Positions 36,623 through 39,799 of a DNA stretch of 64,000 nt are shown here, in pieces; position 1 is the first letter of the stretch; each line of letters opens with the position of its first letter. The position numbers were made by a program, and so were the translations under genes. The notes under the pieces were generated by a model, which made no database searches, was not told where the DNA came from, and saw nothing but the letters and a program-made list of their open reading frames with translations. The stretch comes from Candidatus Obscuribacterales bacterium (GTDB lineage Bacteria; Cyanobacteriota; Vampirovibrionia; Obscuribacterales; Obscuribacteraceae): contig CBDDIJ010000003.1 of NCBI GenBank assembly GCA_965228855.1, positions 2,240,001 to 2,304,000 on the forward strand, written 5' to 3'.

Positions 36623-38014
36623 CTACTCGGGAGCCGTCATCTTGAACGGATCGAGCAATTCGTCCAGTTGATTCTCGGTCAAGTTTGTCGTCTCAAGGGC
36701 AATCTCACGAACAGTTTTTCCGCTCTCGAAAGCCTGTTTCGAAATTTTCGCGGAAGCATCATATCCGATTGCCGGTACGAGCGCGGTAGACAAAGCCAAT
36801 CCTCGCTCAACTAGTTCAGGACCACGTTCTGTCGCCTTGATACCATCAACACACTGTCGCGCAAAGTTCTCGGCAGCCGAAGCAAGCAGGTTTATCGATT
36901 CCAAAAGATTGTAAGCGGCAACCGGCATCATAACGTTCAACTCAAAATTTCCGGATTGTCCGGCAATTGAAACGGTCGCGTCATTTCCTATGACCTGGGC
37001 TGCCACCATAGCTAGTGACTCAGCAATCACCGGATTGACCTTTCCGGGCATAATCGAACTGCCCGGTTGGACCTCAGGAAGAGCAATCTCGCTGAAGCCG
37101 GCACGAGGACCGCAGCCGAGCCAGCGAATGTCATTTGCTATTTTGATCAAACTGCACGCAACTGTTTTCATCACACCAGACGCGTCAACAACTTCATCCA
37201 AAGTACTTTGAGCTTGGAAATGATTAGTCGTCTCGGTAATCTGATAATCGATCATCTTCGAAAGCTTTTCCAGAACGCGACCGGCGAAATCACTCCTGCT
37301 GTTTATTCCGGTACCGACGGCGGTGCCACCGAGAGCTACCGAACTGAGCCTGGTGAAGGCGTAGACAACCCGTTCGCGGGCGCGCTCGACCTGACCGGCG
37401 TAACCAAGAAATTCCTGCCCAAGCCTTATTGGAGTGGCATCCTGTAAATGTGTCCTGCCGGTTTTAATCACAGGCATGAACTCATCTGACTTCTGACGCA
37501 GACTCTTCTCAAGCAATGTCAGAGCCGGGTGCAAACGTTCTTTCATATCAATAATTGCGGCGACATGAATCGCCGTAGGAATAGAATCGTTCGAACTCAC
37601 GCCTTTATTGACATGGTCGTTCGGATGGACGAGCCCGCGGTCGCCAAGCTTGCCACCCAATATCTCAATAGCCCGGTTAGCAATAACCTCGTTAGCATTC
37701 ATGTTGGTCGAGGTGCCGGAGCCGGTCTGGAAAATGTCAACTGGAAATTCGGAATCGTACTTGCCATCTGCCACTTCCCTGGCGGCCTGCATAATCGCAT
37801 CGGCGTGCTTTGCATCAAGCTCCTGAAGTTCCTTATTAACCTCAGCACAGCAATATTTGATCAACCCCAGCGCGCGAATGAAAGATCTTGAAAAGCGCAA
37901 ATTGGATATCGGAAAGTTCAAAACCGCTCGTTGCGTGCTTGCACCGTAATATGCGTTGCATGGTACCTGCATCTCGCCCATCGAGTCTCGCTCAATTCTT
38001 GTCTTCTCAGCCAT
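36623..38014 (-). CDS. fumC: Fumarate hydratase class II
   Basis: R.E.DSMG, QTGSGTSTNMN.NE, GRTHLQDATP and GSSIMPGKVNP signature; likely start ATG 38014. Confidence 0.95.
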   Translation of the reverse strand: MAEKTRIERDSMGEMQVPCNAYYGASTQRAVLNFPISNLRFSRSFIRALGLIKYCCAEVNKELQELDAKHADAIMQAAREVADGKYDSEFPVDIFQTGSGTSTNMNANEVIANRAIEILGGKLGDRGLVHPNDHVNKGVSSNDSIPTAIHVAAIIDMKERLHPALTLLEKSLRQKSDEFMPVIKTGRTHLQDATPIRLGQEFLGYAGQVERARERVVYAFTRLSSVALGGTAVGTGINSRSDFAGRVLEKLSKMIDYQITETTNHFQAQSTLDEVVDASGVMKTVACSLIKIANDIRWLGCGPRAGFSEIALPEVQPGSSIMPGKVNPVIAESLAMVAAQVIGNDATVSIAGQSGNFELNVMMPVAAYNLLESINLLASAAENFARQCVDGIKATERGPELVERGLALSTALVPAIGYDASAKISKQAFESGKTVREIALETTNLTENQLDELLDPFKMTAPE

Positions 38015-38385
38015 CACAAGTCCCTTGATTACTTTCAAATCGGCGGACACGATCGTAACGCCGCCGGAACGCCCCATTGTGGCAGAATGGAGTCGAGAAT
38101 TCCTGAGATCCGGTCTTGGCCGTTCTCATATATAGGTAGAAGTTATTTTTCTAGATCTCGGACATGCGTCAAGAGCCTGATCGATAGAGCTTTTACATCA
38201 CAAGAGAATGAAACTCACACGCACGCAGTATAAGCTTTGTATATATACTTCATCTCCATTAGCCACCAAAGGCGCCACCACTGTAGTCCCACCGATCAGT
38301 CATATCGCATATCGCCGAAAACCACTGCACGTCCTGACTTCTTGGCAATATTTACCACGTTAGAATCAAATGTCTTATGGGGTAC

Positions 38386-38413
38386 TTCCAATATCTATTC
38401 CAGGTGCTAAACT
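38386..38413 (+). promoter_or_regulatory. Putative sigma70-type promoter, copy 1
   Basis: TTCCAA-16 bp-TAAACT with extended -10 TG (TGCTAAACT); conserved in copy 2. Confidence 0.65.
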
Positions 38414-38417
38414 AATG

Positions 38418-38632
38418 ACATAAACGGTGAGCACACACCAAATGGTTGAGTGCGTTGAGCCGAGGGGCCTTACGGAAACGCCAGACGGCGCCGTTCGGAA
38501 ACGGTAGTAAGTGAGCCCGCACCACGCTGACATCTGATGCGCACGTGATGAAATACTGTGCCTTTCGCAAGGGGCACATCAGACAGTAGCTAAAACACCG
38601 CTCGAGAGAAATCTGAGTGGTGTTTTTGTTTG
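38418..38632 (+). ncRNA. Unidentified structured ncRNA, copy 1 (~215 nt)
   Basis: Bounded by promoter and terminator; multiple stems; identical to copy 2 except in one hairpin loop. Confidence 0.75.
38592..38631 (+). terminator. Intrinsic terminator of ncRNA copy 1
   Basis: AAAACACCGCTC-GAGAGAAATCT-GAGTGGTGTTTT-TGTTT. Confidence 0.85.
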
Positions 38633-38787
38633 CGCGCCCATGAGCATATCGAACGCATATCGAATAGTCACCACCGGCGCCACCACTGTAGTCCCATAGC
38701 CTATTAATGATCTATATTCCGGAAACCGCACAGCAAGCGGATACTGACAATAGCGATTCGAGATCTCTTAAATGTCTAAAGGGGTAC

Positions 38788-38815
38788 TTCCAAGATCTCG
38801 CTTCGATGCTATACT
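38788..38815 (+). promoter_or_regulatory. Putative sigma70-type promoter, copy 2
   Basis: TTCCAA-16 bp-TATACT with extended -10 (TGCTATACT). Confidence 0.7.
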
Positions 38816-38819
38816 AATT

Positions 38820-39035
38820 ACATAAACGGTGAGCACACACCAACACGGTTGAGTGCGTTGAGCCGAGGGGCCTTACGGAAACGCCAGACGGCGCCGTTCG
38901 GAAACGGTAGTAAGTGAGCCCGCACCACGCTGACATCTGATGCGCACGTGATGAAATACTGTGCCTTTCGCAAGGGGCACATCAGACAGTAGCTAAAACA
39001 CCGCTCGAGAGAAATCTGAGTGGTGTTTTTGTTTG
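38820..39035 (+). ncRNA. Unidentified structured ncRNA, copy 2 (~216 nt)
   Basis: As copy 1, with loop AACAC instead of AAAT; same terminator at 38995-39034. Confidence 0.75.
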
Positions 39036-39086
39036 TGCATTAGTAGCGAGCTTTGAATGTATTCGGAACAAAGTTGCCGCTCGTGT

Positions 39087-39749
39087 CTAAATCAAACCTT
39101 CACGCATGGCTTTGACTGCGGCTTGTGTACGATCGGACACGGCCAGCTTCTCCATGATGTGTCGCATGTGAGTCTTGACAGTCTCGACGCTTAAAACGAG
39201 CTTGTCTGCAATTTCTTGATTGGTAGACCCATCTACGACCAACCGCAATACATCCAGTTCGCGAGATGAAAGTGTAGAGGCTGGGTTTGCTTTTTCATCC
39301 TCTCGGTCTTTGCCACCCGTTCCGATAGAACGCAATACTCGACCTGCAATTCCAGGATCAAGCCAGGCAACTCCCTCAGCAACGGCCTTGATTGCCATAA
39401 CCAATTGCTGTGACGGCGCTTCCTTCAAGCAGTAGCCATCGGCACCTGCAGAGAGCGCAGCAAATACATGACGGTCGTCATCGTGCGAAGTCAACATTAT
39501 GATTCGCTGGTCGGGACTGTCGGTCTTGATCTGTTTAGTCGCCTCAATCCCATTGAGAACCGGAAGTCCAATGTCCATTAACACCACGTTGGGTTTCAAT
39601 GCCAGAGCAGTTGCAACCGCTTCTTGACCATCCTGAGCAACTCCAAGAACCTTGATTCCGTAGTTTGCCTCAAGAATTACCTTGAGACCTACTCGCGCAA
39701 TCTCCTGGTCCTCGACAATCACAACTGATATGCCAGTATCTTCGACCAT
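39087..39749 (-). CDS. NarL/LuxR family response regulator
   Basis: IVED, LMDIGLP..NG, MLTS, GADGY.LK; HTH LSSRELDVL..TNQEIA..L.LS.ETVKTH. Confidence 0.95.
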   Translation of the reverse strand: MVEDTGISVVIVEDQEIARVGLKVILEANYGIKVLGVAQDGQEAVATALALKPNVVLMDIGLPVLNGIEATKQIKTDSPDQRIIMLTSHDDDRHVFAALSAGADGYCLKEAPSQQLVMAIKAVAEGVAWLDPGIAGRVLRSIGTGGKDREDEKANPASTLSSRELDVLRLVVDGSTNQEIADKLVLSVETVKTHMRHIMEKLAVSDRTQAAVKAMREGLI

Positions 39750-39799
39750 CTCGACGCTTCCAACCTTCTGAAAACTTCTACCTATCCTAGCACGGCTAC

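Follow-up and report, generated by a model that had tools for sequence, protein, structure and literature searches.

Two tandem poplar-1 RNA genes in an Obscuribacterales genome: gene limits, covarying fold, promoter and distribution

The poplar-1 locus

The window, i.e., the whole stretch of 64,000 nucleotides of Candidatus Obscuribacterales DNA that was analyzed, contains two near-identical tandem copies of a structured RNA gene between a divergently oriented gene of the fumarase/lyase family and a convergent gene for a NarL/LuxR-type response regulator (Table 1). One substitution and one 1-nt indel, both in the loop of the 5' hairpin, are all that separates the copies, and here the first-pass annotation of this DNA was correct with regard to both the positions and the restriction of the differences to that loop. 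Its remark that there is no downstream gene to regulate also holds, as the next gene, encoding the response regulator, is convergent. The fumarase-family gene marks a syntenic locus and is no part of the RNA. A perfect 13-nt inverted repeat (38132-38144 and 39773-39785) flanks the RNA pair together with the response regulator gene; both halves are intergenic, lie just upstream of minus-strand genes and may have arisen by chance.

Table 1. Features of the locus in window coordinates; starts of the RNA genes and positions of the distal boxes are predicted.
Feature	Position	Strand	Basis
Divergent flanking gene, fumarase/lyase family	36623..38014	-	ORF; Pfam Lyase_1; linked to the array in same-genus genomes
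Distal upstream box, copy 1 (consensus tnGntCnaGCgcTTgntaat, matched in its left half only)	38285..38304	+	Motif search; probable position by offset
Proximal box, copy 1, AAA-N8-GGGGTACTT, abutting a -35-like hexamer	38368..38387	+	90/91 homologs; strict pattern match
Extended -10, copy 1	38406..38413	+	Upstream motif searches
poplar-1 RNA gene, copy 1, 5' hairpin to terminator	38420..38632	+	Rfam core 38454-38593; extended model R1 38413-38633, 192.5 bits
5' hairpin with kink-turn signature	38425..38462	+	Helices 1 and 2; signature in 94/96 homologs
Long hairpin with near-symmetric 10x10 purine-rich internal loop and short cap stem	38465..38518	+	Helices 3-5; loop strands tallied; same layout in Rfam
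8-bp hairpin, loop 38534-38539 forms pseudoknot	38520..38550	+	Helix 6: two-sided change in 7/8 pairs
3' hairpin, internal-loop strand 38577-38582 pairs with 38534-38539	38554..38588	+	Helices 7-9
Intrinsic terminator, copy 1, outside the Rfam model	38594..38632	+	Helix 10: two-sided change in 11/13 pairs, then U tract
Distal upstream box, copy 2	38687..38706	+	Repeat D3 and motif search; probable position by offset
Promoter, copy 2: proximal box 38770-38789, extended -10 38808-38815	38770..38815	+	Upstream motif searches, strict pattern
poplar-1 RNA gene, copy 2	38822..39035	+	Rfam core 38857-38996; R1 38815-39036, 196.2 bits
Convergent flanking gene, NarL/LuxR-type response regulator	39087..39749	-	Pfam Response_reg and GerE; syntenic within genus

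Of 4227 Rfam families scanned against the whole window, only poplar-1 (RF03041), an entry typed in Rfam as Gene; sRNA, matched, twice and on the plus strand. Either copy scores 125.1 bits at a gathering score of 110.5 and covers model positions 1-141 of 141; RF03041 matched none of 14 control genomes. Among the other Rfam families just two chance matches, far under the thresholds, appeared at E-values up to 10, and no ribozyme or riboswitch family matched at the locus within that limit. We regard it as practically certain that both repeats belong to this family, as complete poplar-1 RNA genes of about 213 nt including the terminator. Since both match RF03041 at full length and above the gathering score, they do not represent the new RNA class for which they had been proposed as a candidate; comparison with Rfam had been set beforehand as the refuting test of that proposal and gave a strong match to a known family. 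The earlier remark that the RNA was not recognised as 6S, SRP, RNase P, tmRNA or a riboswitch stands, as none of these models matches at the locus. SRP RNA, RNase P RNA and tmRNA each sit elsewhere in the genome, on contig C2, and the fold differs from that of 6S RNA (RF00013) in that it forms no closed rod with a central bubble. With these three RNAs encoded elsewhere and a separate 6S-like locus present, the pair does not stand in for a missing housekeeping RNA either.

Poplar-1 was reportedly first described in the motif survey of Weinberg et al. The word "poplar" is absent from the main text of PMC5737381, the supplement of which may describe the motif and its pseudoknot. In the literature searched, outside of which most subscription papers lie, poplar-1 is named only in a list of one preprint (10.1101/2025.10.18.683149), where it appears, in the part of the text available, among small RNAs enriched in intracellular RNA from drinking water; no paper on non-coding RNA in Obscuribacterales was found in the same literature. 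The preprint and the articles given below by PMC number are cited for portions of their texts. The class is not new; what is added here to a family already known in Rfam are the gene limits, a covarying pseudoknot, a two-box promoter and an order-wide distribution, details that make this orphan RNA testable.

With regard to the gene limits, each copy had been described as starting 5 nt after an extended -10 element and ending in a terminator. Both of these signals are present. A start at 38418, however, leaves only 4 nt after the -10 element, while 38420 and 38822 fit the usual sigma-70 spacing better, and we infer that transcription starts at about these positions. A small protein encoded by poplar-1 was considered and rejected: no open frame is shared by more than 50 of 96 homologs, and the lengths of the body are spread over all three frames (45, 26 and 25).

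Fold and covariation

For comparative analysis, 156 profile hits in 127 loci were reduced to 96 distinct full-length copies by dropping duplicates and copies at locus edges. Mean identity in the alignment is 69%; many homologs were gathered with an exact pattern, which inflates invariance at the positions concerned. RNAalifold proposed 52 pairs, and mutual information in the alignment also pointed to a pseudoknot. In the final structure of 60 pairs, 96.0% of cells are paired and 50 pairs exhibit two-sided change, providing the covariation in homologs that the first-pass annotation had named as a check. Slid controls reach 32-40% paired cells, a comparison that favours the structure as it was derived from the same alignment, and none of 500 shuffles attains its score in a test inflated by relatedness. 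A single copy folds modestly better than chance (z -2.07; 4 of 200 shuffles equally good), and the evidence for structure is the covariation.

Read from 5' to 3', the kink-turn hairpin is followed by the long hairpin with its symmetric loop, the 8-bp and the 3' hairpins and the terminator, before which the body measures 159-177 nt. The Rfam model, the 141 positions of which start within the 5' hairpin, drawn as unpaired, and end before the terminator, contains three stem-loops that coincide with covarying helices found here, and its helices (our helices 3-6, 8 and 9) have 91-100% of cells paired in the homologs. Past these 141 nt, the gene extends across the 96 homologs to the 5' kink-turn hairpin, a covarying pseudoknot and the terminator.

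In the 5' hairpin, the 5' arm of which lies outside the Rfam model, a stem (38425-38428/38459-38462) is followed by tandem GA (38429-38430 and 38457-38458), a 3-nt bulge (38454-38456) and a canonical stem beyond. A standard kink-turn has, between two helices, a 3-nt bulge and then tandem G:A and A:G pairs (PMC8191799; "poplar" is absent from its main text), and the sequences of 94 of the 96 homologs agree with this description, -1b:-1n being mostly C:G and 3b:3n being G:U in all 96; the GA of the bulged strand falls within the exact search pattern and the other strand outside it. The hairpin carries a kink-turn signature, from which a kinked conformation, taken up in Mg2+ or when a protein binds, is predicted. 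The strands of the 10x10 loop in the following long hairpin (38474-38483 and 38497-38506) each read (G/A)GAAAC...A. Conserved unpaired segments of poplar-1 are generally purine-rich, and GGA motifs (on average 3.2 GGA and 1.4 ANGGA per RNA) are sited in internal loops and one large loop. A strong non-canonical correlation between alignment columns 45 and 106 (window 38446 and 38505; U-U, G-C, A-U; z 11.8), linking a bulge of the 5' hairpin with the symmetric loop, reflects either a tertiary contact or only subfamily history.

In the pseudoknot, which does not appear in the Rfam structure line, six pairs form between the 8-bp hairpin's loop and the internal loop of the 3' hairpin (96.2% paired, two-sided change in five of six). 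In homologs L021, L114 and L115, the 8-bp hairpin's loop is enlarged by a 14-nt insertion directly behind its pseudoknot strand. A generic terminator scan of the window does not have the copy's terminator in its list.

Six stems had been read from the window sequence beforehand. GGGC/GCCC, the 3-bp core of CTTAC/GTAAG and the GCC/GGC hairpin recur in the comparative structure, and pairing of TCTGAT with ATCAGA is supported as well, as a pseudoknot and not as a nested stem. CGCC/GGCG (77.6% of cells paired, two-sided change in one of four pairs) and CCGTT/AACGG (44.4% paired) did not survive; jointly 59.3% paired across homologs, they are minimum-energy features of the window sequence alone. 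The 5' long-range stem with the kink-turn, two further helices and the pseudoknot were missing from that list.

Promoter architecture

The DNA upstream of the two copies is about 73% alike over 170 nt, with a 74-nt block of 84% and a 41-nt block of 85% identity; it is thus partly alike, the DNA between the conserved upstream boxes having earlier been described as heavily diverged. Of 91 homologs with sufficient upstream sequence, 90 have the proximal box AAA-N8-GGGGTACTT, in most cases 20 or 21 nt upstream of the extended -10. The distal motif is located 91-95 nt upstream of this GGGG box in 62 of 76 non-redundant upstream regions and has a log-likelihood of 490, as compared with 57-73 for three shuffles. 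When a weight matrix was run on this genome, some copies of which had been included in the training set, the six best combined scores (24.9-46.6; next 18.7) fell on the six poplar-1 promoters.

A strict promoter pattern matched 72 times, in 22 of the 31 genomes; 71 of these sites lie 37-49 nt before an Rfam match and the remaining one before a poplar-1 copy cut by a contig end, and no match was obtained with a reversed control, in nine genomes from other orders or in four genomes without the RNA. This pattern was derived from poplar-1 promoters and finds four of the six copies in the present genome, and degenerate sites at other genes are possible. In the genomes searched, the proximal box is found only before poplar-1 genes. 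The two boxes at fixed spacing suggest an activator.

Two candidates for such a factor were rejected. The response regulator encoded next to the RNA pair does not track the RNA: its best matches show 62-63% identity in G182 and G254, both devoid of the RNA, and 51-53% in the carriers G011, G210 and G214. Because the family has many paralogs, this distribution amounts to no support rather than to a refutation. GTA-N8-TAC is the NtcA-type consensus, and this spacing fits within the window copies; for a reading of the box as NtcA-like, however, the left half is unconserved and a GGGG in the supposed spacer is conserved.

Distribution and copy number

The genome studied (95% complete) contains six poplar-1 copies: the window pair, a single copy (C3:433417-433637) and three in a tandem array (C3:265878-267242) that form a subfamily of their own, with about 70% identity to the window copies. 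The Rfam model matched in 21 of 21 relatives from the same order and in none of nine genomes from other orders of the class. The extended model R1 (221 positions) yielded 544 matches in 97 of 101 Obscuribacterales genomes, with 1-16 copies per genome, a median of 5 and at least two copies in 91 genomes; under stricter filters it matched none of 149 genomes from the rest of the phylum, outside the two families. The "doubled dosage" of the first-pass annotation is right insofar as multiple copies are kept and understated given six copies here and a median of five across the order. Larger genomes tend to have more copies (Spearman 0.57; kin are not independent). The RNA and the promoter pattern are both missing from G182, G208, G251 and G254, two of which are 92-97% complete. 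In view of these four among the 101 genomes, poplar-1 may not be essential, and the four will be useful for finding a co-lost regulator and partner.

An exact pattern search of 185,579 species genomes identified 92 stretches. Among the 80 listed, 58 are named Obscuribacter, Obscuribacterales or Melainabacteria, 13 "cyanobacterium", six after oxygenic cyanobacterial taxa, two "bacterium" and one Proteobacteria. Taken together, the names point to Obscuribacterales as the order that carries the RNA. Five of the differently named genomes (oxygenic cyanobacterial or Proteobacteria names) hold 4-8 copies each; these are names only and do not give kinship.

Evolution of the array and expression

The arrangement of fumarase-family gene, RNA array and regulator gene is conserved within the genus with one copy in G007, two in the present genome (G000) and in G004, three in G001 and six in G002. 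In G007, which is about 92% identical here, the promoter of copy 1 is combined with the downstream flank of copy 2 (G007:C6:92500-96500), a pattern to be expected if recombination had removed a 403-nt unit or if the two units had been collapsed in assembly. Identity is 99% between the window copies and 73% between their upstream regions; the remaining tandem pairs of the tree have values of 70 to 99%. At three bases the window copies agree with each other and depart from G007, and the branch joining them has a support of 99/73. Gene conversion, proposed in the first-pass annotation, appears probable from these identities and shared bases, and a recent event between the window copies is likely, changes on the G007 side being able to produce the same pattern.

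Four RNA runs from four studies, out of 24 listed, each contributed one contig of 151-170 nt from inside the RNA body (38434-38601, 38845-38989, 38845-39007 and 38833-38992); the flanks are not covered, which alone proves nothing. The runs were found with this very stretch, and the comparison includes no silent control stretch; 18 of the 24 are flagged as small shares, and the evidence comes from four runs. The contigs give neither strand nor ends nor level. They are a weak hint of expression.

Possible function and alternative readings

The reading as a trans-acting structured non-coding RNA with its own promoter and terminator and under purifying selection, already put forward in the first-pass annotation, is supported by covariation, promoter and context, and we consider it highly probable that poplar-1 acts in trans. 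Because the copies are redundant, the promoter private, the terminator their own, the genomic context free and the loops purine-rich, and because an anti-Shine-Dalgarno seed is lacking, we favour an abundant, protein-binding RNA under a dedicated activator that may work by protein titration, a reading for and against which the chances seem evenly balanced. Binding at the proximal box and at the distal one, some 93 nt upstream of it, a dedicated activator would turn on all copies together; the RNA would then accumulate, fold compactly and sequester or scaffold a protein bound to it, possibly as a dimer at the symmetric loop. The dose would be set by copy number, and tandem copies would be gained, lost and homogenised by recombination. 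The GacA-RsmX/Y/Z and CiaR-csRNA sibling systems follow a similar logic.

The CsrB and RsmX/Y/Z sponges occur in several redundant, separately promoted copies with a common upstream box and their own terminators, and poplar-1 resembles them in each of these points. They differ in carrying many GGA in hairpin loops, whereas poplar-1 has about three in the internal loops of a pseudoknotted fold, and in residing in hosts with CsrA/RsmA, whereas no CsrA match was found in the present genome. RsmA binds GGA/ANGGA motifs (as cited in PMC2662882). Profiles for CsrA, L7Ae-family proteins and Hfq found no match in this 95% complete genome, the Hfq profile having also missed a cyanobacterial control. 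CsrA is present in two of 21 same-order relatives and in five of nine genomes without poplar-1; the two distributions do not fit, and a CsrA sponge was rejected. In the class as a whole CsrA is patchy (7 of 31 genomes, L163, L164 and five others). Two matches to the KhpA/B family are encoded in the present genome. KhpA/KhpB are bound by the raiA motif RNA (PMC12968392), which, in the portion of that article cited, is akin to poplar-1 in having about 200 nt, a pseudoknot, a trans-acting nature and a puzzling function and unlike the multi-copy poplar-1 in being single-copy, in occurring in Bacillota and Actinomycetota and in having two pseudoknots; no Rfam raiA match was found in the window.

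In its most specific form, which we regard as doubtful, the protein-titration reading would make poplar-1 the sole output of an Obscuribacterales-specific signalling pathway, with one activator, one private two-box promoter and up to 16 redundant RNAs, the symmetric loops of which titrate a possibly dimeric RNA-binding protein. If true, a non-photosynthetic sister group of the cyanobacteria would have built a Gac/Rsm-type switch around a kink-turn and a pseudoknot, without CsrA.

Poplar-1 could instead function without a protein, as a ribozyme, a ligand-binding trans RNA or a self-assembling structural RNA. Its pseudoknot, its kink-turn signature, many near-invariant loop and junction bases and the missing L7Ae-family protein would suit such a role, and pseudoknots and junctions are regarded as marks of biochemically sophisticated RNAs (Weinberg et al., PMC5737381, in the part cited). 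The same source, however, takes occurrence in several phyla as a criterion, while poplar-1 is confined to one order; moreover, the ribozyme and riboswitch families of Rfam do not match, and as many as 16 copies with separate promoters would be more than a catalyst is likely to need. We deem this explanation unlikely.

A decoy role towards RNA polymerase or a sigma factor, such as 6S and Ms1 play, would agree with a size near that of 6S RNA and with the fact that RF00013 finds nothing in this genome, and is rather improbable all the same: the 5' and 3' ends close no rod with a central bubble, the genome has a separate 6S-like locus (C2:813651-813887, E 2.5e-33, with a profile built from five sub-threshold RF00013 matches of relatives), and a 6S-like match exists beside poplar-1 in 10 of 21 in-order relatives. 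Sub-threshold 6S matches, all under the Rfam cut-off, occur in 14 of the 31 genomes.

An equally improbable option is a family of base-pairing sibling sRNAs with an mRNA seed, like Qrr or the cyanobacterial Yfr2, to which the several copies, the one common promoter box and the terminators would be appropriate. Yfr2 is also multi-copy with a GGAAACA repeat (PMC1242208) and measures 80-95 nt, with a conserved 12-nt hairpin loop and a single-stranded 5' motif through which it pairs with Yfr1 (PMC2662882); at Yfr2-family genes of Prochlorococcus MED4, and according to the parts cited only there, a 21-22-nt palindrome, CGRE1, is found (PMC2662882, PMC1242208, PMC6778093, PMC6191309). Poplar-1 shares with Yfr2 a related lineage, multiple copies, the lack of synteny, a repeated GGAAAC-like motif and a private promoter element, which, unlike CGRE1, is not palindromic. 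Homology to Yfr2, suggested by the twin GGAAAC motifs, was rejected in view of the longer poplar-1 body, the paired state of its 5' motif and the differing distribution. Pairing of this conserved 5' motif, single-stranded in Yfr2, likewise speaks against a base-pairing sRNA, as do the rarity of CCUCC or CUCCU (anti-Shine-Dalgarno) in the homologs (5/96) and the failure of the extended model to find anything in the 149 genomes mentioned above. No 7-mer complement stands out in 3460 crude translation-start regions, where the best ratio was 2.89, the 99th percentile of all 7-mers being 2.84, and the start codon is part of the top hits.

A selfish or mobile repeat whose copies stay similar through duplication and conversion could account for the variation of the array among the five genomes of the genus (1, 2, 2, 3 and 6 copies) and for the rise of copy number with genome size. 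It is made very improbable by compensatory changes throughout the RNA at a mean identity of 69%, by the synteny of loci within the genus and by the flanking genes, as no transposase, integrase or reverse transcriptase occurs among the best Pfam matches listed for 74 flanking ORFs; these ORFs, from 29 loci, have no common Pfam family beyond local synteny. On viral contigs, only one of three pattern matches is a true copy, the other two being unmatched by the model and situated in unrelated DNA. The true copy (L160:1-176), its 5' end cut, lies at the edge of a 2.6-kb IMG/VR contig that may be host rather than viral DNA.

A cis-regulatory leader, i.e., a riboswitch or attenuator, for which the complex fold, the terminator directly 3' and a same-strand ORF downstream of 21 of 60 copies in long loci might be quoted, is scarcely credible, since mechanically called ORFs place a convergent gene (23) or another copy (13; nothing within the locus in the remaining 3) after 36 of the 60, both window copies included, and the same-strand neighbours belong to unrelated families.
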